The notes beneath the pieces are model-generated. The model was not told the origin of the DNA and made no database searches. It saw nothing but the letters and a program-made list of their open reading frames with translations. Positions 8,553 to 40,381 of a stretch of DNA of 52,008 bases are shown piece after piece. Origin of the DNA: Patescibacteria group bacterium (GTDB lineage Bacteria > Patescibacteriota > Microgenomatia > Daviesbacterales > UBA10151); NCBI GenBank assembly GCA_038064895.1, contig JBBTSA010000014.1:9962-61969 (forward strand), read 5' to 3'. A program made the position numbers and the translations under genes. Numbering within the stretch: position 1 is the stretch's first letter; each line of letters opens with the position of its first letter.

Positions 8553-9139
8553 TTCTTACGTTTTACAAAAGTAATATATATCAATCCATATAAAAGTGTA
8601 CCTAAAACTCCTACTAATAGATCGTTTACAACATCAAAGGTGCCTCTTACATTATGAGTTCCTAAAAATACATCTGTATAATATTCTTGAGCTTCAAGCA
8701 GCATGTGTACAATATTTGCAAACCCTACCCCACTCCAAAATGAAAATCCGAAAGCTCCTAAAAGTACTGCTGATAGGGCTGCAGTGGAATGGAAATGAGG
8801 GATTAGATCAAAATAAAAATAAGTGTCATACAAATTAAATGAGTTTCCTGCCATATCAAGCCAAAAAATAGAAAGATAAAGGTTATCCCACCAAAAAGGG
8901 TACTTGTGGTGAGCGGACTTGTACTGAGCATAGTCGAAGTAGTCGAACCACTTTTTCCACTTCTTTTTCCAAAAGTAAAGTATTGGGAAAAGTAAGCTTA
9001 AAGAGATAACAATAATTAAATTCCTAATAGGAATAGCTTTCCCAGCAAATCTAGGATCATCCGGATTAAACAAAACTTCTCCTAGAAAATAAAAGATGGA
9101 AAGCCTGATAAGTATATTTACTACAAGACCCAGCCGCAT
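8549..9139 (-). CDS. integral membrane hypothetical protein
   Basis: 196 aa with several hydrophobic helices. 4-nt overlap with the downstream gene. Confidence 0.6.
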   Translation of the reverse strand: MRLGLVVNILIRLSIFYFLGEVLFNPDDPRFAGKAIPIRNLIIVISLSLLFPILYFWKKKWKKWFDYFDYAQYKSAHHKYPFWWDNLYLSIFWLDMAGNSFNLYDTYFYFDLIPHFHSTAALSAVLLGAFGFSFWSGVGFANIVHMLLEAQEYYTDVFLGTHNVRGTFDVVNDLLVGVLGTLLYGLIYITFVKRKK

Positions 9140-19959: not shown

Positions 19960-20034
19960 CCCTGAGCCAGTCGTACTTCGATTCCACTCAGTACGATCCT
20001 GAGTGTTAATCGAATGGGTCGAAGGGCTCAGTAC
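19960..20034. repeat. nested GC-rich palindromic elements (family B outer, second palindrome inside) in the ftsH leader
   Basis: ccctgagccagtcg[tacTTCGATTCCACTCAGtacgatCCTGAGTGTTAATCGAAtg]ggtcgaagggctcagtac, located 24 nt upstream of the ftsH ATG. Confidence 0.75.
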
Positions 20035-20387: not shown

Positions 20388-21435
20388 TCTTCATTGCTTT
20401 TTTAACAGCATCCAGGGTTTTTTGAGCTTCTTTTCTGGCTTTTTCAGTACCTTCCTTCAAAATCCTATCCACAAGTTCTGGCTGTTTTTCAAATTCTGCC
20501 CTTCTTTTCCTGATGGGATCCAAAAAATTATTTAAAACTTTAACCAGGTACTTTTTTACCTCAATATCACCTACTTGACCTTTCCTATATCGCTCTTTCA
20601 GACTTTGCACTTCACCCTTATCACTTTGCACTGAAAATGCATCCAAATAGATAAACACCGGATTACCTTCTACAGTTCCAGGATCAGTTGGATGAATCCT
20701 TTTGGGGTCTGTATACATACTCATGACCTTTTTCTCTACAACTTCTGCAGAATCTGTTAGGAAAATTGCATTATTTAAGGATTTTCCCATTTTAGCCTGC
20801 CCATCAGTCCCAGAAAGAGTTGGCACATCTCCTATTAAAGGCTCCGGCAAAGGAAAGACTTCGCCATACAGTTTATTAAATTTTTCAGCCAAATCTCTGG
20901 CCAGTTCTACATGAGCCTTCTGGTCTTTACCAACAGGTACTAAATTGGCTTTAGGAAGCAGAATATCTGCTGCCATCAAAACCGGATATTCATATAGCGC
21001 AAGGGTGTCCTGCTCACCCTGATCAAGTTTCTCTTTAAGAGCTGGTTGTCGCTCCAGTACTGGTCTGAAGGTTAGAGTGGCCAGGATATATGCCAGCTCC
21101 ATTTTTTCCAGCTCTTTTGATTGTAAAATAAAAGTTACCTTATTAGGATCAAGTCCTACAGACAAATATCCCAGCATAAGGCCTCTTATATTCTTTTCCA
21201 AATCCGCAGTCTTCTCATAATGGGTAGTTAAGGCATGCAAATCAGCCACCAAAATATATGTTTCATATTCATCCTGCAATTTGACACGATTGGCCAAAGA
21301 ACCCACATAGTTCCCTAAATGAAAACTATCATATGTCGGCCTGTCCCCTGTGAGAATGCGTTTTTTAGCATTCTCACCCTGAGCTTGCTTGCGGTGAGCC
21401 TGTCGAATCCGTTGAAGGGTTAATATGCTTTTCAT
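20371..21435 (-). CDS. trpS: tryptophan--tRNA ligase
   Basis: 354 aa. HLGNY (HIGH-type) and KMGKS (KMSKS) motifs. The first about 20 codons are repeat-element sequence. Confidence 0.9.
   Translation of the reverse strand: MKSILTLQRIRQAHRKQAQGENAKKRILTGDRPTYDSFHLGNYVGSLANRVKLQDEYETYILVADLHALTTHYEKTADLEKNIRGLMLGYLSVGLDPNKVTFILQSKELEKMELAYILATLTFRPVLERQPALKEKLDQGEQDTLALYEYPVLMAADILLPKANLVPVGKDQKAHVELARDLAEKFNKLYGEVFPLPEPLIGDVPTLSGTDGQAKMGKSLNNAIFLTDSAEVVEKKVMSMYTDPKRIHPTDPGTVEGNPVFIYLDAFSVQSDKGEVQSLKERYRKGQVGDIEVKKYLVKVLNNFLDPIRKRRAEFEKQPELVDRILKEGTEKARKEAQKTLDAVKKAMKIDYYD
21375..21420. repeat. GC-rich element (family-B-like) inside the 5' end of trpS
   Basis: caccctgagcttgcttgcggtgagcctgtcgaatccgttgaagggt, translated LTLQRIRQAHRKQAQGE. 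Confidence 0.7.
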
Positions 21436-24515: not shown

Positions 24516-25721
24516 TTATTTTCCATATGCTAAATCTACCATGACCTTAGCTGTAGAGGTCATTGGTGTCTCCCTTCCAAAAATATGAAAATCAAATCCT
24601 TCTTTTTTTCCTATTACTTTTAACTCCTCAAAAGCTTTTTTATCATTTGGCCCACCCCTTCTTATCACAATTGGGTATTTTGGTTTAATTTCTCTTAAGG
24701 CCTCTACAAATCCCATTAAAGTTTCATAAATATCAGTAAAATTAGCTGTCCCCCCCACAAACCAACATCCTTTTAAACCGGGTTTACTTAAAACAATCTT
24801 GGTTAACTTTTCTAGTTTTTCCCTTGGAGGGTTACCAGAATGTTCTGTATAATTTGCAGGTTTTCCTCCATAAGCTATCAGAGCATCCATATTAACAATA
24901 GATCCCCCGCCTCCAGCAGCAATTACAGCTATATCTCCATCTAGATCCCAATAAACTGATCCAGCAGTTCCCCTGTGATCTCCTTGATCTATTTTTCTTG
25001 CCTCAATTTCAGCTTCAGTTGGAGGCCTGCCAAAAAGATTTCTTTCAGGAAACTCTACCCCGATTAAATCGGGGTTCTCTCTTCTTCTAAAAGTGGCATC
25101 ATCATCCAAAATTATCTTAGCGTCTAACGCAAGATAATTTTGCCCTGAGCGATCCGGCGAAAGCTGGAGAGTCGAAGGGCTACCTTTGCCCACAGCTAAG
25201 GGATTAATCTCAGCCAATTCACAATCATATTTTATAAATACTTCCCATAATTTTTTGACTGTTTCTACTAAATAACCTGGGAGGTTAATTAGGTTTGCAC
25301 CTAGGGGGTCCAACATATCAACAGGTTCAGTTTTTGTTTCCTTTTCCTCAGTTCCAGTTCCTCCCTCCCCAAAAGTCATTACTGGTCCTCTTGTTTCTGT
25401 AGAGTATGAGAATGAAAGATAGTATTCTTTATCTATATCAACAACTTCCTCAACAAGGATTTTTTCTACTTTTTCTCCATTTACAGTTTGCTTAAAAAGT
25501 TTTTCTACTTCCCCCTTAACGCTTCCCCCTTTACCCTTAACAACCACAATTCCCCCCCCTTCTGCTCTATTCCCAGATAAAACCTGAGCTTTTAGGACTA
25601 AAGGTGGCTTAATTATTACCCTTTGACTCTTTTGACTTTGTGACTCTAATAGCTGACTCTTGGGAACTAATATTCCACAGCTTTTAAAAAGCTTTTTCCC
25701 CTCAAATTCATAAAGAAGCAT
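24516..25721 (-). CDS. succinyl/citryl-CoA synthetase beta-type subunit (ATP-grasp)
   Basis: 401 aa. MLLYEFEGKKLF N-terminus (SucC-like), ATP-grasp region, C-terminal IAAGGGGSIVNMDAL..GGKPANY ligase-CoA motif. One in-frame repeat insertion. Confidence 0.8.
   Translation of the reverse strand: MLLYEFEGKKLFKSCGILVPKSQLLESQSQKSQRVIIKPPLVLKAQVLSGNRAEGGGIVVVKGKGGSVKGEVEKLFKQTVNGEKVEKILVEEVVDIDKEYYLSFSYSTETRGPVMTFGEGGTGTEEKETKTEPVDMLDPLGANLINLPGYLVETVKKLWEVFIKYDCELAEINPLAVGKGSPSTLQLSPDRSGQNYLALDAKIILDDDATFRRRENPDLIGVEFPERNLFGRPPTEAEIEARKIDQGDHRGTAGSVYWDLDGDIAVIAAGGGGSIVNMDALIAYGGKPANYTEHSGNPPREKLEKLTKIVLSKPGLKGCWFVGGTANFTDIYETLMGFVEALREIKPKYPIVIRRGGPNDKKAFEELKVIGKKEGFDFHIFGRETPMTSTAKVMVDLAYGK
25144..25179. 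repeat. GC-rich mini-element family B, in frame
   Basis: cctgagcgatccggcgaaagctggagagtcgaaggg. 36 nt (PSTLQLSPDRSG). The internal ccggc-gaaa-gctgg can form a GAAA-capped stem. Confidence 0.85.
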
Positions 25722-29203: not shown

Positions 29204-29206
29204 AAG

Positions 29207-29278
29207 TACCAGGGGTGGGGATCGAACCCACAACCGCCACGTTATGAATGTGGTGCTCCGCCATTGAGCTACCCTGGC
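29207..29278 (-). tRNA. tRNA with anticodon CAU (Met or Ile2)
   Basis: 72-nt cloverleaf drawn by hand: GCCAGGG/CCCTGGT acceptor stem (G1-U72), D stem GCTC/GAGC, anticodon loop TTCATAA, T arm GTGGG-TTCGATC-CCCAC, discriminator A. No encoded CCA. Confidence 0.85.
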
Positions 29279-29317: not shown

Positions 29318-29719
29318 ATGGACTGTATTTTTTGTAAAATCATTAAAGGAGACATTCCCTCTTATAAAATTCATGAAAATGATAAATTTTATTCCTTCCT
29401 ATCTATTGGCCCACACCACGAGGGCCACACCCTAGTTATTCCAAAAACCCATGTTGATGATTTTTTTGATATGGATGAGGCCCTTCTGAAGGAAATCCTC
29501 CTCTATTCTAAACCACTGGCAGATGCCCTTGAAAGGGCATTTAAACCTAAAACAGGAAGGGTTGGAGTAGTTGTGGCAGGACTTGAGATCCCCCATGCGC
29601 ATCTACACCTAATTCCAATGGACCAAGTATCTGATTTATACTTTTCATCTGCAAAATCAGCTTCTCCAGAAGAGCTCCAGCAAACTCTTGATAAAATCAA
29701 AACAGCTTTAAAATCCTGA
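29318..29719 (+). CDS. HIT-family nucleotide hydrolase
   Basis: MDCIFCKIIKGDIP N-terminus and histidine triad HAHLHLIP. Confidence 0.85.
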   Translation: MDCIFCKIIKGDIPSYKIHENDKFYSFLSIGPHHEGHTLVIPKTHVDDFFDMDEALLKEILLYSKPLADALERAFKPKTGRVGVVVAGLEIPHAHLHLIPMDQVSDLYFSSAKSASPEELQQTLDKIKTALKS

Positions 29720-29939
29720 TTTTCCTTGCTCTTTCCCAGCTTTTTATTTCTGCTTCTCTTCTTAGAGCTTCAGATTTTGTAGGTAACTTCTCAGAGTAGA
29801 CTATTTTAAGTACTTTATGAGATCTGGTATATCTTCCACCTTTACCTTCTTTATGATCCAAAAGCCTTTTTTTAAGATTATTTGATGATCCTGTATATAA
29901 ACTTCCATCAATACATTTAATAACATACACATGCCACAT
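29697..29939 (-). CDS. GIY-YIG nuclease family protein (small, catalytic domain only)
   Basis: 80 aa. YVYVIKC..GSLYTGSSNNLKKRLLDH..., conserved Arg and Glu (ALRREAEIK). Confidence 0.8.
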   Translation of the reverse strand: MWHVYVIKCIDGSLYTGSSNNLKKRLLDHKEGKGGRYTRSHKVLKIVYSEKLPTKSEALRREAEIKSWERARKIRILKLF

Positions 29940-29941
29940 AG

Positions 29942-30619
29942 CTATTTACTAGCAAGACCACTAATCCATCCCCTAGTTTTATTAAGTAGTTCACTACTCT
30001 TACGTACTCTGATTCTCAATACCCCGTAATACTTATCTCTGTTAGAGTAATTTCTTAGCCAGGTTGATCTATGGTAAAAAGGCTTTTCAAATTGATTTAG
30101 TGGTATATTTGTTATCCTAGACCAAAAATTTTTGATTTCTCCAGTCCTATCCCTATGAGATTCATTAAACTCGGTTCGTAAAATGAAATCTTCTGATTTA
30201 ATCCTAATAGCCTTTTTAAACCATTTAATCATAAATTTGATCATTTTTGGATCTGTGTTACAAAAACCCAAACGTTTCTCTTTCAAGCTCTTAAACCCCT
30301 CCGCCCAGTAAAGAGAAAGACCTACCAAGAAAAATTCTTTATCTGTTAGATTGCTAATCTCTGCCTTTGACTTCTTCATAATCTCTGCAACTTTTATGAG
30401 TGACTTTTGATGTTTAATCTTTGCAAGTCGACGCAAATGAGAAATTCTAGCCCTACTTTTTAAAAGATTTTCGATCTGTTTTGGAGATAATTTTATCGGT
30501 TTACACCACGAGCTGGCCGTGGCTGGACTTATGCTTAGAAGTTTTGCTATTGCACGGATACTTTTACCTTTTCTCCTTAAATCTAACGCTTTGTTATATT
30601 CTTCAATCTTTCGTATCAT
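29942..30619 (-). CDS. HTH-domain protein with a LAGLIDADG-like motif (possible free-standing homing-endonuclease-like protein)
   Basis: Resolvase-type HTH (GKSIRAIAKLLSISPATASSW), then FLVGLSLYWAEGFK, which resembles a single LAGLIDADG motif. I chose the start at Met26. The nuclease call is tentative. Confidence 0.4.
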   Translation of the reverse strand: MIRKIEEYNKALDLRRKGKSIRAIAKLLSISPATASSWCKPIKLSPKQIENLLKSRARISHLRRLAKIKHQKSLIKVAEIMKKSKAEISNLTDKEFFLVGLSLYWAEGFKSLKEKRLGFCNTDPKMIKFMIKWFKKAIRIKSEDFILRTEFNESHRDRTGEIKNFWSRITNIPLNQFEKPFYHRSTWLRNYSNRDKYYGVLRIRVRKSSELLNKTRGWISGLASK

Positions 30620-30711
30620 GGAATGATAGGATGTATTTCTATTATCCAATAGTTCCAATAATATTGTCAATAGGCATTGACATATAGTCCGCATGAGGCT
30701 AAAATAGACAA

Positions 30712-30976
30712 TGCGGGGAAGTGTAACGGTTGCACGGGAGGCTCAATTTGGGCCCATTTAAGAGTAATCTTTTATGAGAACTTGGCTATATCGGTGAAAC
30801 CCTGAGCAAGTCGAAGGGTAATACCGAGGGAAGGATGTACTATACAGTACGTCCCCTGTAGAGACTACACGCCGAGCCCCTGAGTTTATCGAAGGGTGAT
30901 GATATAGTCCTACCCTTGCAGGAATGCAAGAAGGTGCATAATCTCCAGGCAGTAGGCTCAATTCCTACCCCCGCAA
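30712..30976 (+). tRNA. tRNA(CAU) interrupted by a group I intron (exons 30712-30743 and 30937-30976)
   Basis: The spliced 72-nt product folds as follows: acceptor TGCGGGG/CCCCGCA (same as the E. coli initiator stem except U1-A72), D stem GTGT/GCAC with GG loop, anticodon stem GGAGG/TCTCC, loop CT|CATAA, T arm GTAGG-CTCAATT-CCTAC, discriminator A. Confidence 0.8.
30744..30936 (+). ncRNA. group I intron (compact, IC3-like), 193 nt, no internal ORF
   Basis: 5' splice site after U33, which forms a U-G pair in P1 (30740-43 with 30751-54). P2 30759-64/30769-74. P3 30781-85/30872-76. P4 30792-95/30823-26. P5 30800-03/30815-18. P6 30827-30/30854-57. Conserved GTAGAGACTACACG at 30858-71. P7 30862-67/30905-11 with one bulge. 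P8 30878-81/30893-96. P9 CTTGCA-GGAA-TGCAAG at 30915-30. Terminal G at 30936. Confidence 0.8.
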
Positions 30977-31111
30977 CAGCGCACCATACGGTGCACTGCT
31001 GTCGCCACTCTAAAAGAGATACTTTGGAATATGATGAAGGTCCGATAACAGTAGTGCGCGTTGAGATGCGCCGAATGGCGCGTCTCCACCCCTTCTTGGT
31101 AGAATTAAATA

Positions 31112-31375
31112 ATGAGCTTTTACTATGTCTACGTTCTTCAAAGCCTTAAGTTCGATTGGATTTATGTAGGATCTTCAGCTGATTTGAGAACAAGATTTAA
31201 AAATCATAATGATGGAGAAAATCTGTCAACAAAAGGATACAAACCCTTTAATTTAATTTTCTATGAAGCCTATCTTAGTAAAAAGGATGCTTTAAGAAGA
31301 GAGGAATATTTTAAAACTACTAAAGGTAAAACTACATTAAGGACCATGTTAAAAGAATATTTCAAAAACAAGTAA
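31112..31375 (+). CDS. GIY-YIG nuclease family protein (small)
   Basis: 87 aa. YYVYVLQS...WIYVGSSADLRTRFKNH..., ALRREEYFK. Confidence 0.8.
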   Translation: MSFYYVYVLQSLKFDWIYVGSSADLRTRFKNHNDGENLSTKGYKPFNLIFYEAYLSKKDALRREEYFKTTKGKTTLRTMLKEYFKNK

Positions 31376-33582: not shown

Positions 33583-33637
33583 TTCGACTCACTCCGTTCG
33601 CTCAGTGCAGGCACAGATTCGCTCCGCTCAATGCAAG
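33583..33637. repeat. GC-rich element (TTCGACTCACTCCGTTCGCTCAGTGCAGG type)
   Basis: A GC-rich block immediately after the direct repeat. It overlaps the ftsB-like stop codon and seems to supply part of that ORF's odd C-terminal tail. Confidence 0.55.
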
Positions 33638-33978
33638 AATACCCTCAACCACCCTAACCAATTAGGTAATCTGGGCTCCGAGCTTGAGGTTACTCCTAAA
33701 ATCTCCTTTATCTTCTTATCAGGAATAATTACAAGCGTCTCCCCCTCCTTTCCTAAACCAAGCTTATTTCTGGCTATTTCCTCTACAAATTCAGGCGATT
33801 TTATTTCAGATAATCTTTTTTTAAGCTCTTTATTTTTAACCTCTGATATAAAAACCCTATCAGCTGCCTGGTTTAATCTTTCAGAAACATTTAAAGTATC
33901 CGTTATTTGTTTAATAAGATTAAAGCTGATAAAGCCTACAACTAAAATTATTAAACCTATTGTAAATTTTTTAATCAT
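33628..33978 (-). CDS. septum formation initiator family protein (FtsB/DivIC-like)
   Basis: 116 aa. N-terminal TM, coiled-coil, EFVEEIARNKLGLGKEGETLVI signature. The last about 20 aa look like read-through into repeat DNA. Confidence 0.75.
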   Translation of the reverse strand: MIKKFTIGLIILVVGFISFNLIKQITDTLNVSERLNQAADRVFISEVKNKELKKRLSEIKSPEFVEEIARNKLGLGKEGETLVIIPDKKIKEILGVTSSSEPRLPNWLGWLRVFLH

Positions 33979-33997
33979 ACTGTTTGTAAATATAGCC

Positions 33998-34026
33998 TTG
34001 ACAAATCTATCCTATAAATATATAAT
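33998..34026 (+). promoter_or_regulatory. consensus sigma70-type promoter (TTGACA-N17-TATAAT) for the recombinase gene
   Basis: ttgaca at 33998-34003, 17-nt spacer, tataat at 34021-34026. The ATG is at 34036, only 9 nt after the -10 box, which implies a leaderless or near-leaderless mRNA. Confidence 0.5.
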
Positions 34027-34035
34027 ATACGTCTA

Positions 34036-34899
34036 ATGACCGCTCTTAAAGATGCCCACAAACAATTTATTGACTATCTTAAGGGCAAAAATCGTGCCTC
34101 TGCTACTATCTTAGCCTATGGGAAAGACATTGATCAACTGGTAGTCTATTTGGAGAACTTAGGCAAAACCGATCCAGACACAGTTAACACTGAAGATCTC
34201 CAAGCTTTCATGGAAAAATTATCAAAAGAAGCTTATACCCCAAAATCAATCTCAAGAAAAACAAATTCAACTAAAACATTCTTTAAATTCCTAAAAACCC
34301 AAGGATTTGCTAATGAAGATGCGGCAGCAGGACTTTTACATCCCAAATTTGAGAATAAGCCTCCAAGAATATTAACAAAGCTTGAATATAGAGCCTTAAG
34401 GGATGCTGCCAGAACAGATGTTAGAATGCTTGGTGTTATTGAACTCTTACTCCAAACTGGTGTTAGGATTGGTGAACTTGCAAAACTTAGAGTTGAAGAT
34501 ATAGATTTACAAAATGGGACAATCCATGTTCCCCTATTTGAAGATACAAGAGAAAGAACTATCCCATTAAATACTCCTGCTGCAGAGGCAGTTAGAAAAT
34601 ATTTGGAAATAAGACCCAAAACTCAAAACCATGCACTTTTTATTACTAAAACAGGAAGACCCCTTTTAATTAGAAATATTAGGGCTGCAATTGATAGATA
34701 TTTTAGAATTGCAGGAATAAAGATGGCTAAAGTTAATGACTTAAGACACACCTGGGTTGCACATCAGCTTCAATCAGGAGTATCTTTGGTAACTGTTTCC
34801 AAGCTTGCAGGGCATAAAAGATTATCAACAACTGAAAGATATCTTCAATTCATCCAAAACCATAATGGAGATAGTAAGGTAAAACTGGAGGAATTATAA
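34036..34899 (+). CDS. tyrosine recombinase, XerC/XerD family
   Basis: 287 aa. N-terminal SAM-like core-binding domain. Catalytic region RIGEL.., LRHTWVAH, GHKRLSTTERY (R..HxxR..Y). Confidence 0.85.
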   Translation: MTALKDAHKQFIDYLKGKNRASATILAYGKDIDQLVVYLENLGKTDPDTVNTEDLQAFMEKLSKEAYTPKSISRKTNSTKTFFKFLKTQGFANEDAAAGLLHPKFENKPPRILTKLEYRALRDAARTDVRMLGVIELLLQTGVRIGELAKLRVEDIDLQNGTIHVPLFEDTRERTIPLNTPAAEAVRKYLEIRPKTQNHALFITKTGRPLLIRNIRAAIDRYFRIAGIKMAKVNDLRHTWVAHQLQSGVSLVTVSKLAGHKRLSTTERYLQFIQNHNGDSKVKLEEL

Positions 34900-35273
34900 T
34901 GTCTGAACAGCAAGAATTAAGACCTTCACTCAATGAAATCGTTGATCAAGCTAAAGCTAACTTTTGGTCAAAAGACCGTGTAGAACGAGAAGATAATCTT
35001 TTTGAATCTTATAACTATCTTATGGCAGCAGACGATGCTGTGGTTCAGTCTAATATAGACGCAGTAGCACAACTACCATTTGTAATACGACAAACTAAAA
35101 TAAGAGCTAATGATATTGAGTGGAGTGATTTTTGTGACAGTTTAGAAAACGATCTAAACTGGGAGAGTTTTTGTCGCCATATTATTGAAGAAATCACAGC
35201 ACAGGAGTTATTATCAGATCCCATGGTTGCAGTTGAGGAGCAACGAAGATATGATACAGAAAATGAAATATAA
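34899..35273 (+). CDS. acidic hypothetical protein
   Basis: 124 aa, rich in Asp/Glu. Its ATG overlaps the recombinase stop (TAATG). Confidence 0.55.
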   Translation: MSEQQELRPSLNEIVDQAKANFWSKDRVEREDNLFESYNYLMAADDAVVQSNIDAVAQLPFVIRQTKIRANDIEWSDFCDSLENDLNWESFCRHIIEEITAQELLSDPMVAVEEQRRYDTENEI

Positions 35274-35322
35274 ACTTCTTAATAAACTTATTCAAACCTC
35301 CTGAAGTTACAAAAATTTATGA

Positions 35323-35339
35323 TGTGGGCGGACCTGGAT
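35323..35339. repeat. 17-nt direct repeat (copy 1), part of a tRNA 3'-end-like fragment
   Basis: tgtgggcggacctggat. With the next 6 nt, the reverse complement reads CGAATCCAGGTCCGCCCA (T-loop/acceptor-like). Confidence 0.7.
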
Positions 35340-35355
35340 TCGGCAAAACGCGCTC

Positions 35356-35384
35356 TTGACAAATTCTTTTCTTTTTAGTATTCT
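35356..35384 (+). promoter_or_regulatory. putative promoter plus palindromic operator for the AbrB-PIN module
   Basis: ttgaca (35356-61), N17, tattct, followed by the near-palindrome ttctaaaatttagaattttagaa. Confidence 0.35.
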
Positions 35385-35416
35385 AAAATTTAGAATTTTA
35401 GAAAGTAGGAAAAATT

Positions 35417-35674
35417 ATGCAGCAAGTAGTTATTAAACCGCTAGCCAAAGGCCAAATCACCATTCCGATATCTTTCAGGAAAACCCTGGGAATAGATAAA
35501 TCTACCCTTTTTAAAGCACAGTTAAAAAAAGACGGAATACTTCTTACTCCTCTGCAATTTGACTGGCAGGAAAAATACATCAGGGAATTTACGGATGATG
35601 AAATCAAAGAGTGGCTTAGGGAAGACAGGCTTGATAAAAAAGAGCTCAAAAAAATCAAGCAATACCTTAAATGA
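35417..35674 (+). CDS. AbrB/MazE-type antitoxin
   Basis: 85 aa. KGQITIPISFRKTLGI SpoVT/AbrB motif. 4-nt overlap with the PIN gene. Confidence 0.75.
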   Translation: MQQVVIKPLAKGQITIPISFRKTLGIDKSTLFKAQLKKDGILLTPLQFDWQEKYIREFTDDEIKEWLREDRLDKKELKKIKQYLK

Positions 35675-36105
35675 AGGTTTTTCTGGATGCCTCTGTAATT
35701 ATTACCGGAATAAATTCCAAAAACTCTGCCTCTAATATTATTCTGAAGCTTTCTCAAAAAGGAAAAATTAAAACCTTTGTTTCCTCTATTACTCTGAATG
35801 AGGTAATAAGAAACTTAAATAAAAAGTTTCCAAAAGAGGTACTGCAGGATTTTCTAACCTATCTTTCTAAAAGCAATTTTAAAAAAATAGAATTTAAGGA
35901 TGAATCGGAAGTTTTAAAATTTCAAGGAGTAACTACTCAAAAAGATATTCATGTTATAGCAGCGGCAAGTAAAGCCAAGGTAGATTTTATAATTACTTTT
36001 GATAGAAAACACTTATTATCCATTAAAGAAGGCACTTTACCGTTTATAATTCTTTCACCAGCTGATTTGATTAAGAAAATATTCTCAAAAAACCAATCTA
36101 AATAG
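35671..36105 (+). CDS. PIN-domain toxin
   Basis: 144 aa. MKVFLDASVII N-terminus and TFDRKH near the C-terminus (PIN acidic residues). Confidence 0.75.
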   Translation: MKVFLDASVIITGINSKNSASNIILKLSQKGKIKTFVSSITLNEVIRNLNKKFPKEVLQDFLTYLSKSNFKKIEFKDESEVLKFQGVTTQKDIHVIAAASKAKVDFIITFDRKHLLSIKEGTLPFIILSPADLIKKIFSKNQSK

Positions 36106-36110
36106 ATGAG

Positions 36111-36127
36111 TGTGGGCGGACCTGGAT
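36111..36127. repeat. 17-nt direct repeat (copy 2)
   Basis: tgtgggcggacctggat is identical to 35323-35339. It lies 42 nt from the 3' end of tRNA-Ile. Confidence 0.7.
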
Positions 36128-36169
36128 AAGTAACCTGTCCTTCGGACAGAACGAACCAGGAACCAGTTG

Positions 36170-36241
36170 TAGGCCCGGAAGGAGTCGAACCCTCGTCATC
36201 ACTGTATAAGAATGAGGTATTAACCGTTATACGACGGGCCT
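36170..36241 (-). tRNA. tRNA-Ile (anticodon UAU)
   Basis: Hand-folded 72-nt cloverleaf: AGGCCCG/CGGGCCT acceptor stem, U8, D stem GTAT/ATAC with GG loop, anticodon stem TCATT/AGTGA, loop CTTATAC, T arm GAGGG-TTCGACT-CCTTC, discriminator A. Confidence 0.85.
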
Positions 36242-36275
36242 GTTAGGAATTATACCAAAGCTCACCTTAAGTGTC

Positions 36276-36342
36276 ATGCCGAATCCTGAAAGTGTTATCC
36301 CGAATTTATTTCGGGATCTTCAGGACAAGCTTGTTTCGGCAT
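36276..36342. repeat. 67-nt imperfect palindromic element
   Basis: ATGCCGAAtCCTGAAagtgttATCCCGAAtttatTTCGGGATcTTCAGGacaagcttgtTTCGGCAT. It overlaps the 3' end of the GIY-YIG ORF and supplies its C-terminal tail. Confidence 0.75.
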
Positions 36343-36619
36343 CTACTGATAAATCCCTAAGAGTTGGATTAGTATTTTTAATCAAATTTAGCTTCCATTC
36401 TCTGTGCCAATTCTTTAATTGTTTTTCTCTTACTAATGCATCGTTTACCTGACTACACTCTTCAAAATAAATTAATTTCTTCAGTTTGTACTTTTTAGTA
36501 AAACCATCTATAAGTTCATTTTTGTGTTCATATATTCTTCTCTCTAGATTATTGGTAACCCCTATATAAAGGGTTGTATTGTTTTTATTAGTTAGAATAT
36601 ACACATAGTAAGAATTCAT
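36320..36619 (-). CDS. GIY-YIG nuclease family protein (small)
   Basis: 99 aa. YYVYILTNKNNTTLYIGVTNNLERRIYEHK, ALVREKQLK. The last about 15 aa are encoded by the palindromic element. Confidence 0.8.
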   Translation of the reverse strand: MNSYYVYILTNKNNTTLYIGVTNNLERRIYEHKNELIDGFTKKYKLKKLIYFEECSQVNDALVREKQLKNWHREWKLNLIKNTNPTLRDLSVDAETSLS

Positions 36620-36657
36620 GAAAGAGACCCTTAAACAAGTTCAGGGTGACAATAAAA

Positions 36658-39003
36658 TTACAGCTTTGCTCTTTGGACAATTGATGCTTCAACTTGGGTA
36701 ACATCACGGCCATATTTAATCCTGGACAACTCCCTTATCGCCTGTCCTATTTGAGAATTAAGCATAGATTTCCACTTATTCATATCTTTTGTCGTATCCA
36801 AAGAAAACGGCACAACAGGTTCCCCGGAAACTATTGTTTTAATATATGCATGCGGAGATTCAATATTTACAAGATCCGCCTCTTGGAAGATAGGTGTAAA
36901 TTCATGCTGAAGATAATTTGCATCAGTTACTCCAACCCTAAATCCAATAACAGTACCCACATTCCCAAAAACAGCATTTTTCAAATCCTCTCCAATTTGC
37001 CCAATAAACTGATTTGCAACAATTAAATTTAATCTATATTTTCTAGCCTCGGATAAAATATCAGCAAAAGTATCAGTTGCAAAGTTTTGAAACTCATCAA
37101 CATAAAGATAGAAGTCTTTACGTTTCTCCTCTTGAGTTTCAGCCCTTGACATGGCTGCTGCCAAAATTTTTGGAACAAGGATTAATCCTAAAAAGTTTGA
37201 ATTTTCCTCACCTATTTTTCCTTTAGATAAATTGATTATTAAAACCTTGCCCTCATCCATAATCTTCCTAAGATCAAAAGAAGAATGGGATTGCCCAATA
37301 ATGTTTCTCATCATTTTATTTGTGACAAATCTTCCGAATTTGGAAACCGTATAATCCAAAACTTCAGATTTATGAAAATCCGTGGTTTGGGCAATTTGAT
37401 CTGTCCAATATCTTCTTACCACAGGATCCGCTACTTTTGGCAAAAGCTCTCTAACAAAATTTGCATCAGTCATGATACGCATAACCTCAACAAAAGTTGC
37501 CCCCTCTTGGCTCATTGCAGTAAGCATTGCATTCCTTACTCCGTGCTCAAATCTGGGACCAATAATTCCTGTTTTATTTGGATCAAAAAGCTTATACATA
37601 AGTCCTATGATTGAAGCAACAACAAAGTGTTTTTGCTGTTCAGTGTATGCCTCAAGCATATTAAGCCCAAAAGGACGAGAAACATCCGAAGGATCAAAAT
37701 AAATTACATCTTCTGCTCTATTCGGAGGAATAAGTTGAAGCATTTCTTCTGCCGCGTCACCATGAGGATCAATAAAACATAAGCCTTTTCCAGCCAAAAT
37801 ATCTTGAAGCATTAAACTTTTAAGAAGCTCGGTTTTACCTGTTCCTGTTCTGCCAATGACATACATGTGTCTTCTTCTATCGTCTTCCGCAAGATATACA
37901 GGCCTTACTACCCCTCTAAAAACAGACCTTCCTAAATATAGACCTGATGTTGGTATTTTCTCCGGTGCAGGTGCCCTTTTGGAAGAAAGCCAAGAAATAT
38001 AAGGGGTTTCTATGGATTTATTTGGAAAATGAAAGGCCGAGGCAAGTTCATCCGGTGTTAAGATTGGCATTTTTGAATATTTTGGCAAATATCTATAAAT
38101 AAAATCAGTCATAAATCCCTTTTCAGAATATATCTTTTGGGAAGTAAGAGAGTTATATGGTCCTGAAAATTGTTCAAAAGCAGCCTTTATATTAGCCAGG
38201 TGTGTTTTAGCAAATTCAGATGTTGAGGATGAAACTACAACCCTGATAGAAGTGTAAAATCCGGGCCTTGCAATTTTTCCTTCAACAGCTTCAAGCTGTT
38301 TGGCATCGGGAGGAGGCTTTGGATTTTTCTCATCTCCCGGTTCTTTTTGTTTTTTAACCCATTCTTTGCCTTTATCTTTCCATTTATCATCTGATGGCGA
38401 AATAATCAACTGTACAGATGCTCCCTCCCCCGGTTGCATTTTGGCTAAAGCAGAAGTTAAGGCAGAGAGAGGGTCTGTTGGTAAATCACGGAAGGTTTTT
38501 AATGGGAACCAGTCAGTATTTTTTAGCTTTAAAGAAGCATAAGCAGTTTGTCCTGTTTCTGAAAAAATATTGTATTCTGGGACTTCTTTAATTTCTGCAT
38601 CCGGATATGCTCCATTTATTTGTTTTTCCAAAAGATCCTTATGATCTTTATGGCAGGAAACGAAAAATCTTATAGATTCATGAATCGCAACTATTTCAAA
38701 GGAAAGTTGCGGTTGAGGATTAAAAGTTGAAAGAAGTCCTCCTGATTTTCTTAAAGCCGCAAAGGTCGCAAAAAGCTGTTCTGCAGCATCAATTTTTATT
38801 TCATTTCCTCTTGGGACTTTAATTTGTAAAACAACAAACTGCAAAGAAGATTTTTCTCTTTGTCTGTATTTAATCCATCCTACAAAAAATTTTTTAACAT
38901 AAAACCCAAGTCCAACAAAGATTAAAATTACAGCTAAGGCTGCAACAACTGTAGCTATTAAACCAAAAATATCAAAATTACCTGTAGTTTGTACAACTTC
39001 CAT
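36658..39003 (-). CDS. VirD4/TraG-type (type IV coupling-protein-like) P-loop ATPase with N-terminal TM
   Basis: 781 aa. TM near the N-terminus, Walker A GRTGTGKT, Walker B LYVDEFQNF, overall FtsK/HerA/TraG-like layout. The exact family was not verified. Confidence 0.6.
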   Translation of the reverse strand: MEVVQTTGNFDIFGLIATVVAALAVILIFVGLGFYVKKFFVGWIKYRQREKSSLQFVVLQIKVPRGNEIKIDAAEQLFATFAALRKSGGLLSTFNPQPQLSFEIVAIHESIRFFVSCHKDHKDLLEKQINGAYPDAEIKEVPEYNIFSETGQTAYASLKLKNTDWFPLKTFRDLPTDPLSALTSALAKMQPGEGASVQLIISPSDDKWKDKGKEWVKKQKEPGDEKNPKPPPDAKQLEAVEGKIARPGFYTSIRVVVSSSTSEFAKTHLANIKAAFEQFSGPYNSLTSQKIYSEKGFMTDFIYRYLPKYSKMPILTPDELASAFHFPNKSIETPYISWLSSKRAPAPEKIPTSGLYLGRSVFRGVVRPVYLAEDDRRRHMYVIGRTGTGKTELLKSLMLQDILAGKGLCFIDPHGDAAEEMLQLIPPNRAEDVIYFDPSDVSRPFGLNMLEAYTEQQKHFVVASIIGLMYKLFDPNKTGIIGPRFEHGVRNAMLTAMSQEGATFVEVMRIMTDANFVRELLPKVADPVVRRYWTDQIAQTTDFHKSEVLDYTVSKFGRFVTNKMMRNIIGQSHSSFDLRKIMDEGKVLIINLSKGKIGEENSNFLGLILVPKILAAAMSRAETQEEKRKDFYLYVDEFQNFATDTFADILSEARKYRLNLIVANQFIGQIGEDLKNAVFGNVGTVIGFRVGVTDANYLQHEFTPIFQEADLVNIESPHAYIKTIVSGEPVVPFSLDTTKDMNKWKSMLNSQIGQAIRELSRIKYGRDVTQVEASIVQRAKL

Positions 39004-40036: not shown

Positions 40037-40381
40037 GGTTCTCCCTTTCCTACCATAAATCCCTTGATAAATCACTTTACCCACAATTTGATCCATATTT
40101 ATTGGTCCAAAATCTCTACTATCAATACTTTCTTGTTTGTTGTCACCCTCAAGCCAAACCTGATCACCATCAATTTTCTGTATTCTTTTTATAATTTCCC
40201 TGTTCACTGTACCTCTTCGAGCCTGAGCCTCAGAGCCGAAGGCCTGTTTACTGTTAATTACTACAATATCTCCAACTTTTGGATTTACAAACCAATTAAC
40301 AGACAAAACATCCTGACCAGGATAAAGGGTTGGAGTCATGGAATTACCTGAAACTGTAAATCTTGAAATTGGACTTTTCAA
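40004..40381 (-). CDS. sodX: S26-family peptidase, Ni-SOD maturation protease-like
   Basis: 125 aa. VSGNSMTPTL catalytic Ser motif. Immediately downstream of sodN, overlapping it by 4 nt. Confidence 0.7.
   Translation of the reverse strand: MKSPISRFTVSGNSMTPTLYPGQDVLSVNWFVNPKVGDIVVINSKQAFGSEAQARRGTVNREIIKRIQKIDGDQVWLEGDNKQESIDSRDFGPINMDQIVGKVIYQGIYGRKGRTLKPIKSISSY

Follow-up and report, generated by a model that had tools for sequence, protein, structure and literature searches.

The locus described here raises the question of what interrupts a tRNA(CAU) gene in the middle of its anticodon loop, and whether the tRNA that would result from joining the two halves is the initiator. The gene lies in a stretch of 52,008 nucleotides (nt) from a Patescibacteria group bacterium (GenBank assembly GCA_038064895.1, contig JBBTSA010000014.1, positions 9,962 to 61,969 of the forward strand), which is referred to below as the window, and in which all coordinates are counted. 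The nearest named relatives are Daviesbacteria and Microgenomates, within the candidate phyla radiation (CPR). We consider it very probable that the gene is a patescibacterial initiator tRNA(CAU) gene, split between U33 and C34 by a compact, self-splicing group I intron that has no open reading frame (ORF). This reading is built on the sequence, a covariance-model score, covariation, the distribution of related loci, and the presence or absence of the intron at otherwise comparable sites. As a type of element the intron is unremarkable, but the CPR family of which it is a member is widespread, has hardly been documented and shows a clear presence/absence polymorphism.

A tRNA gene split after U33

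Exon 1 (30712–30743, + strand; 32 nt, TGCGGGGAAGTGTAACGGTTGCACGGGAGGCT) supplies the 5' strand of the acceptor stem, the D arm, the 5' strand of the anticodon stem, C32 and U33, and ends in GGAGGCU. It is followed by an insert of 193 nt (30744–30936, +) that lacks an ORF, ends in G, and is assigned as a group I intron on the model score, structure and covariation given below. Exon 2 (30937–30976, +; 40 nt, CATAATCTCCAGGCAGTAGGCTCAATTCCTACCCCCGCAA) begins with CAUAAUCUCC and contributes the CAU anticodon with A37 and A38, the 3' strand of the anticodon stem, the variable loop, the T arm (loop CUCAAUU), the 3' strand of the acceptor stem and the discriminator base A73; CCA is not encoded. When joined, the exons form a 72-nt cloverleaf with the anticodon loop CUCAUAA. 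The positions and sequence of the gene agree with an earlier preliminary description of this DNA. Since the dinucleotide CA opens both the insert and exon 2, three cut sites lead to an identical product. Group I chemistry demands U as the last base of the 5' exon and G as the last base of the intron, and U33|C34 was chosen because it is the only one of the three sites that gives both.

The preliminary description had named a covariance-model search as a check on the intron, and the outcome is positive. When a 701-nt region was searched with laxer filters, RF00028 (Intron_gpI) matched positions 30734–30931 over the full model (1–253) with 68.7 bits (E 2.7e-17), compared with a gathering score of 50 bits. 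The intron is not reported by an Rfam cmscan of the whole 52-kb window at the gathering threshold with default filters, which is an effect of the filters because the same intron scores 18.7 bits above the threshold in the short region. An intron of the same type at another locus (L248; such numbers denote loci in our scans) was also missed by an "evalue" run on short loci. Filter-dependent false negatives of this sort matter for intron surveys. ARAGORN, and Rfam at the gathering threshold, find only two other tRNAs in the whole window, i.e., tRNA-Met(cat) at 29206–29278 and tRNA-Ile(tat), with the anticodon UAU, at 36169–36241 (−).

A sigma-70-type promoter, identified purely as a consensus match, is present at 30677–30705 (+; TTGACA-17-TAAAAT), where it agrees with the consensus at 11 of 12 positions and ends 6 nt before the 5' end of the tRNA, and the gene may well be transcribed from it. 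Homologues of the exons occur at 24 or more genome loci and at 119 metagenome loci.

Fold and covariation of the intron

All of the group I hallmarks listed in the preliminary description can be drawn for the insert, including a P1 U·G wobble, helices P2–P9, a bulged P7, a GGAA-capped P9 and a terminal G, and the helices covary. The alignment comprises the window and 23 homologous loci (24 sequences), and is numbered along the pre-tRNA with 30712 as position 1; all helices are on the + strand. P1 (30740–30754; pre-tRNA 29–34/38–43) is drawn with GGCU of the exon and CA of the intron pairing with the guide UGGGCC, and is 99% paired, with the splice-site wobble U33·G (pre-tRNA U32·G40) invariant in 24/24 sequences. 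P2 (30755–30776; 44–52/57–65) is a hairpin with a GUAA tetraloop, which is retained in nearly all relatives, and all nine of its pairs covary. The strands of P3 (30781–30786 and 30871–30876; 70–75 and 160–165) are 100% paired with compensatory changes in five of six pairs. The P4–P5 domain (30791–30827) consists of P4 (80–84/112–116), which is essentially invariant, and P5 (89–95/101–107), the tip of which was found by motif search as the hairpin CCCUGAG-CAAGU-CGAAGGG. In the P6/P6a hairpin (30828–30857; P6 117–119/144–146, P6a 122–130/135–143), the helix is conserved at its base and variable at its tip. P8 (30878–30896; 167–173/179–185) is the hairpin CCCUGAG-UUUAU-CGAAGGG, and covariation is seen in P5, P6, P8 and P9 alike.

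P7 pairs a 5' strand at 30861–30867 (150 and 152–156, with A151 bulged) with the 3' strand UAGUCC at 30905–30910 (194–199). Its six pairs are all invariant in 24/24 sequences, which says little, since the pattern used for the search included the P7 sequence. The 3' end of the intron (30912–30936) holds P9.0 (201–203/222–224), which is restricted to the sub-clade of the window, P9 (204–209/214–219) with its GGAA loop, and the terminal G (225; base 30936); P9 is 88% paired, and five of its six pairs show compensatory changes. P2 and P9 both carry GNRA loops, and P5 and P8 both start with C-rich stems.

Taken as a whole, the drawn structure is paired in 83.1% of the alignment cells compared with 72.5% in shuffled alignments, none of which (0/500) matches the observed value, and its covariation score is 0.335 as against at most 0.143 for slid partners. 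RNAalifold, to which no structure was supplied, recovers the acceptor, D, anticodon and T stems together with P1–P6, P8 and P9, with compensatory changes in 37 of 59 pairs; the anticodon stem, which joins exon to exon across the intron, is among the helices recovered and also covaries. The introns of the relatives score 64–86 bits with RF00028, and among the matches listed, the closest are about 78% identical to that of the window. They share a conserved core, and a few recurring types of hairpin replace one another at the tips of P2, P5, P6 and P8.

From this fold, a splicing pathway can be proposed. The tRNA gene would be transcribed from its own promoter, and the intron would fold into P1–P9. 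An external guanosine bound in P7, which by analogy with other group I introns is expected to hold the guanosine-binding site, would attack after the U of the U33·G wobble in P1. Exon 2, which begins with CA, would then replace the first two bases of the intron opposite the guide to form P10. Those two bases are likewise CA and pair with the guide in just the way that the opening bases of exon 2 would, and an exchange of P1 for P10 is what we would expect of such a CA/CA match. Finally, the 3' OH of U33 would attack after the terminal G at 30936, joining the exons to a 72-nt tRNA that would be trimmed at its ends before addition of CCA.

Identity of the spliced tRNA

The preliminary description read the acceptor stem (UGCGGGG/CCCCGCA-A), the U1–A72 pair and the absence of the three G-C pairs in the anticodon stem correctly, and left the identity of the tRNA open. 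That caution was reasonable, but the evidence favours assignment of the spliced RNA as initiator, in view of an invariant set of acceptor pairs and of separate genes for methionine and isoleucine tRNAs. The window has the CAU anticodon, G2:C71, C3:G70, G4:C69 and A73, and the acceptor set and A73 are invariant in 24/24 sequences. At position 1:72, the C1×A72 mismatch of bacterial initiators is found in 20/24 sequences, and a U-A pair in 4/24, including the window. Furthermore, since tRNA-Met(CAU) and tRNA-Ile(UAU) are encoded separately in the window, the initiator role is left for the split gene by elimination. As for the latter of these two genes, some bacteria use tRNA-Ile(UAU) in place of tRNA-Ile2(CAU), and its presence may therefore point to decoding of AUA without lysidine and TilS.

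Several features weigh against an initiator gene that is both functional and spliced. Position 1:72 in the window is a Watson–Crick U1–A72 pair and not the unpaired position of an initiator, although such a weak pair may still be tolerated in an initiator tRNA. The anticodon stem is A29–U41, G30–C40 and G31·U39, with one G-C pair of the canonical three. A8, U21 and C54 depart from the canonical initiator or general tRNA pattern, and ARAGORN at default settings rejects the spliced tRNA. The window covers 52 kb of the genome, so that a second, uninterrupted initiator gene may exist elsewhere, and splicing activity, expression and initiator function are all deduced from sequence.

The first two of these features, together with an 11:24 pair that is U-A and not the A-U of bacterial initiators, would suit an elongator tRNA-Met or a tRNA-Ile2 with lysidine-modified CAU. 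The same anticodon-stem pattern, however, is common to all CPR homologues, including those with C1×A72, and GGG/CCC is found in the copies from Omnitrophota. With the invariant acceptor pairs and A73, the prevalence of C1×A72 among the homologues, and the other two tRNA genes close by, we regard an elongator or tRNA-Ile2 as improbable.

The unusual bases and the verdict of ARAGORN could instead mark a decaying pseudogene, in which the intron stays unspliced or the tRNA is non-functional and another initiator copy is used; the L9 loop, GGAA where the relatives have GUAA, could be taken in the same sense. Rejection of the spliced RNA by ARAGORN is due to the single base C54, since the C54T variant, or a relaxed -ps threshold, returns tRNA-Met(cat). 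The spliced product differs at four positions from its closest intronless homologue, and the intronless homologues score 52–54 bits with RF00005 and are called tRNA-Met by ARAGORN. Odd T-loops (CGCAACU, UCCGACU) and A8 are common among these intronless homologues of the clade. The exact T-loop of the window appears to be private to it, because a 3'-exon pattern containing it (GGCTCAATTCC) has no match in the scan of species-representative genomes. No core pair of P1, P3, P4 or P7 is broken, the terminal G is in place, the model score is above threshold and the promoter is near consensus, and in the small genomes of CPR bacteria duplicate tRNA genes are generally not expected. Decay of the gene is accordingly the least probable of the explanations that we have weighed.

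Distribution and presence/absence polymorphism

A survey of the same tRNA in relatives, which the preliminary description had suggested, shows that the intron is both widespread and polymorphic. Species-representative genomes were scanned with the core pattern GTAGAGACTANACG-N(15-45)-GATATAGTC, and the resulting loci, at least 120 other bacterial introns with the same core string, were sorted with a split-tRNA finder and a regular expression. At least 24 of them have an intron of 187–351 nt after U33 of an initiator-type tRNA(CAU); these are from Levy-, Davies-, Gottesman- and Parcubacteria, from Omnitrophota and from several metagenome-assembled genomes (MAGs) with loose labels, and thus mostly from Patescibacteria/CPR and Omnitrophota. 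Among the matches listed, a second large class is inserted after U34 of tRNA-Arg(UCU) (CUU|CUAA), in Bacillus and relatives (L008, L054, L063), Arenicellales (L007, L042), Acidobacteriota (L015, L026), Bacteroidota and Chloroflexota, and a single locus (L110) has an intron in tRNA-Leu(UAA). Many CPR loci carry an intron with the core string in 23S rRNA. ARAGORN mislabels several of the split tRNA-Arg(UCU) and tRNA-Leu(UAA) genes as Ser, SeC, Pro or Stop.

Metagenomes were scanned with the type of 5' exon found in the window (YGCGGGGAAGTGTAANGGNTGCAC), which gave 119 loci. The intron is absent from 71 of these and present at the same site in 30 (170–255 nt), and the remaining 18 are cut by contig ends. 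Identical exon pairs are found in both states; one of them, ...ATCAGGCT|CATAATCTGAAGGCAGGGAGTCCGACTC..., is uninterrupted at five loci (L130, L166, L172, L176, L229) and split at two (L173, L231). The two states are, moreover, intermixed on a tree of the flanking GIY-YIG gene. Judged by these sequences, the intron family in initiator tRNA genes is gained and lost over short evolutionary time scales.

The intron-bearing metagenome alleles (within L124–L242) all have U39 (exon 2 CAUAAU, G31·U39), except for one doubtful call (L187), and the intronless alleles have either C39 or U39. The bias towards U39 could reflect pairing in P10, a target preference or phylogeny.

A divergent gene linked to the intron

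About 90 nt upstream of the tRNA gene, and divergent from it, lies an uncharacterised gene of 225 amino acids (29942–30619, −), here called ORF-X, with an N-terminal helix-turn-helix (HTH) and a conserved C-terminal domain. A promoter-like site facing it (TTGACA-18-GATAAT, 30641–30670, −) is likewise a consensus match only. In the metagenome loci, homologues of ORF-X (tblastn, 56–63% identity) are found divergently at −70 to −175 in 10 of the 27 evaluable intron-bearing loci, compared with 0/62 intronless loci (Fisher p = 1.7e-6). Where the intron is absent, a conserved GIY-YIG gene begins 27 nt from the tRNA, and in alleles with both intron and ORF, ORF-X is located between the two. Among the matches listed from the genome scan, ORF-X is divergently upstream at 10/24 initiator loci (35–42% identity), with a downstream copy at two, one of which has both, and it is found at 0/95 other loci, i.e., those with tRNA-Arg, tRNA-Leu or 23S introns or without an assignable host gene. 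The association also holds in the reverse direction: starting from four ORF-X homologues (40–52% identity) and ignoring the tRNA, an intron-split initiator tRNA was found 100–140 nt upstream at 4/4 loci, at three of which tRNA-Met(cat) follows directly downstream of the ORF-X homologue. Homologues are present in Daviesbacteria, Microgenomates and Patescibacteria MAGs.

Because empty, intron-only and intron-plus-ORF sites all exist, and ORF-X is never found upstream of an intronless initiator gene, the locus can be read as a case of collaborative, or trans, homing. ORF-X would then be a free-standing mobile gene dependent on the intron, presumably coding for an endonuclease that cleaves the DNA of intronless initiator tRNA genes at a specific site, so that intron and ORF-X would spread jointly. 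Intron-only alleles should be frequent under such a scheme, since the intron is closer to the presumed cut site than ORF-X is. We put this forward tentatively, at somewhat less than an even chance. A more general formulation, in which ORF-X founds a new family directed against the Met-type tRNA genes of Patescibacteria, made up of homing endonucleases with free-standing genes or of selfish genes of another sort that depend on the intron, is in our view possible, with the balance tilted slightly further against it. The ORF-less intron would then repair the damage at the RNA level and immunise its carrier, and the two elements would spread by gene conversion.

The points against homing concern both the incomplete linkage and the protein itself. 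No ORF-X is nearby at 17 of the 27 intron-bearing loci, and paralogues (31–38% identity) are located a short way upstream of tRNA-Met(cat) or tRNA-Ile(tat) genes that are not interrupted. Another paralogue is encoded about 40 nt upstream, and on the same strand, of a tRNA-Asn(GUU) (L226, 1–420, −) that is split after U35 by a different group I intron (RF00028, 81 bits). In a neighbour-joining tree of ORF-X copies, those adjoining tRNA-fMet are not separated from those adjoining tRNA-Met or tRNA-Ile. Pfam searches with 49 members of the family return HTH domains only and no nuclease homology, and part of the HTH similarity is transposase-like (PAI subdomain of Sleeping Beauty, E 0.02). The C-terminal domain has the invariants GLxLYWAEGFK, GFxNxDP, N152, YGxLRI and S208, is represented by 3,625 cluster representatives at E <= 1e-3, and occurs in two copies in some proteins. 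AlphaFold models have a high predicted confidence (pLDDT) of 88.3 for the full-length protein and 91.9 for the C-terminal domain; Foldseek comparison of both models with PDB and BFVD gives nothing at E < 0.03, the best matches in PDB being YfiB and IspF (E 0.036, TM 0.39). The motif GLSLYWAEGFK...GFCNTDP led us to consider a LAGLIDADG enzyme, a type with an alpha-beta-beta-alpha-beta-beta-alpha fold, for which the two AlphaFold models, three Foldseek searches, a profile search of PDB sequences and Pfam offer no support; no LAGLIDADG enzyme is among the top 50 Foldseek matches of the models.

The main alternative to homing is that ORF-X binds DNA, or is a selfish gene of another sort, and has nothing to do with movement of the intron. 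The intron would then be real but an immobile relic, inherited vertically and lost repeatedly, and ORF-X would be an unrelated DNA-binding protein that happens to be encoded near Met-type tRNA genes, for example a transcription factor, a protein of transposase type or one that assists in splicing. The HTH-only similarity, partly transposase-like, and the lack of a nuclease fold in the searches above fit this explanation, as do the paralogues next to uninterrupted tRNA genes and the intron-bearing loci without ORF-X, and we give it nearly an even chance. It accounts less well for the absence of ORF-X upstream of the 62 intronless alleles and for the intron at all four loci reached from the ORF side. 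On the tree of the flanking gene, the states of intron and ORF-X are scattered, and all three states include alleles with identical exons. If descent were purely vertical, the elements would have to have been lost independently many times.

Hairpin repeats in and around the intron

In the preliminary description, the ends of the P5 and P8 hairpins were said to be shared with a repeat family ("family B") scattered through the genome. This is true of a looser motif; of the exact form, CCCTGAG-N-TCGAAGGG, the window has just two copies, both of them within the intron. CTGAG-N(3-9)-CGAAG is present eight times in the window compared with 0.24 expected, and 0/100 shuffles reach eight. Copies of the repeat (CC)CTGAG...CGAAG(GG), mostly on the + strand, are located at 8924, 12221, 19960–20026, 21377–21420, 25143–25179, 40215–40241 and 43345, and the longer elements with the same ends at 19960–20026 (z = −5.5) and 25143–25179 (z = −3.4) are strong hairpins. 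Several copies lie inside minus-strand genes, and two copies are the tips of P5 and P8. A similar hairpin element is found downstream of the split tRNA in another genome (L246).

The identity of the two tips suggested conserved tetraloop receptors, an explanation that was rejected as the motif is present in only 4 of 55 related introns, and there in different helices. For the same reason, the tips are better described as variable modules. They look like copies of a small, genome-wide hairpin repeat that have settled in tolerant loops of the intron, and a comparable case has been reported from Thiomargarita (PMC4853749). Directly after the tRNA, a further hairpin, CAGCGCACC-AUAC-GGUGCaCUGCUG (30977–31001, +), has a core (GCACCAUACGGUGC) resembling the P8 tips of related introns (GCACCGUAUGGUGC in L173 and L231), and appears as another recurring hairpin module.

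Neighbouring genes

Three stand-alone GIY-YIG genes of 80–99 amino acids are encoded within 7 kb, at 29697–29939 (−), 31112–31375 (+) and 36320–36619 (−). The first two flank the split tRNA, and the third is directly upstream of tRNA-Ile(UAU). These small genes were considered as the endonucleases of the intron and rejected, as they show no association with the intron state: a GIY-YIG gene is present within 1.5 kb of the tRNA at 34 of the 71 loci without the intron and at 17 of the 30 with it. In both states, a gene of the type found at 29697 often lies upstream of the tRNA at a distance of about 27 nt.

Near tRNA-Ile(UAU), the region 33605–39003 encodes a XerC/D-like tyrosine recombinase (34036–34899), a MazE/PIN toxin–antitoxin pair, which is seen in L001, and a TraD/VirD4-like coupling protein (36658–39003), and may be an integrated mobile element. 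Bacterial PolA and FtsH are encoded in the window. ENA contigs from Hainich groundwater (well H51, 0.1 µm filter fraction) encode a protein that neighbours the split tRNA.

Relation to known introns and homing systems

The small tRNA introns of subgroup IC3 in bacteria (Azoarcus tRNA-Ile(CAU), Anabaena tRNA-Leu(UAA), Agrobacterium tRNA-Arg) are likewise about 200 nt long, ORF-less and inserted in the anticodon loop, with GNRA loops on P2 and P9. The preliminary description had likened the core to that of the Azoarcus intron, and the core string GUAGAGACUA-ACG is probably common to these introns. The Azoarcus intron resides in a different tRNA, and presumably follows U36 (CAU|A), compared with U33 (CU|CAU) in the window.

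Unlike the present intron, that of Synechocystis contains its own endonuclease gene (I-Ssp6803I, of the PD-(D/E)XK type), whereas here the candidate partner gene is outside the tRNA gene. Group I introns in the initiator tRNA gene of cyanobacteria were described in 1994 (also by Paquin et al. 1997) and still cause missing fMet predictions, according to PMC8450103 and PMC11622646. The cyanobacterial tRNA-fMet intron is similarly sporadic among relatives, and tRNA finders miss the gene (PMC8450103), but the hosts are Cyanobacteria and not Patescibacteria/CPR. In a 2014 review on the diversity of tRNA genes, the only bacterial hosts listed for tRNA introns are cyanobacteria and alpha- and beta-proteobacteria (PMC4033280). 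As for CPR bacteria, term counts show that tRNA is nowhere mentioned in a study of rRNA insertions (PMC11270868), and intron-split tRNAs in CPR genomes have been reported in passing (PMC8172020). These works deal with the same host group, and the core string is also found in CPR 23S rRNA genes here, but the identity of the split tRNA, the insertion site, the polymorphism and the linked ORF are not described in them. Our literature search found no paper on an initiator-tRNA intron in CPR bacteria, its polymorphism or a linked gene.

Collaborative or trans homing is outlined in section 12 of PMC3984707 and in PMC2790892. The present locus resembles the known cases in having an ORF-less intron at most a few hundred bases from a separate small gene, in that this gene is confined to sites with the intron, and in that intron-only alleles are common. 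The known cases concern protein-coding genes of phages, with endonuclease activity demonstrated, and differ in this from a tRNA gene on a bacterial chromosome with a partner protein that has no recognisable nuclease domain. The 2014 review (PMC3984707) sees little evidence of horizontal movement of bacterial introns.

Implications

CPR genomes can seem to lack an initiator tRNA because standard tRNA finders miss the split gene, and the exon and intron patterns used here retrieve the gene at well over a hundred loci. If the split gene is the sole initiator gene, as is likely for a small CPR genome, an essential tRNA would depend on splicing by a ribozyme. The presence or absence of the intron between alleles with identical exons provides a natural system for studying how bacteria gain and lose introns. 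Of all the results, the linkage of the intron to the uncharacterised ORF-X is the most interesting. If ORF-X is a nuclease, it would add a family of homing endonucleases with an unrecognised fold, and collaborative homing, for which the cases known so far are from phages, would be extended to bacterial chromosomes and to an essential tRNA gene.

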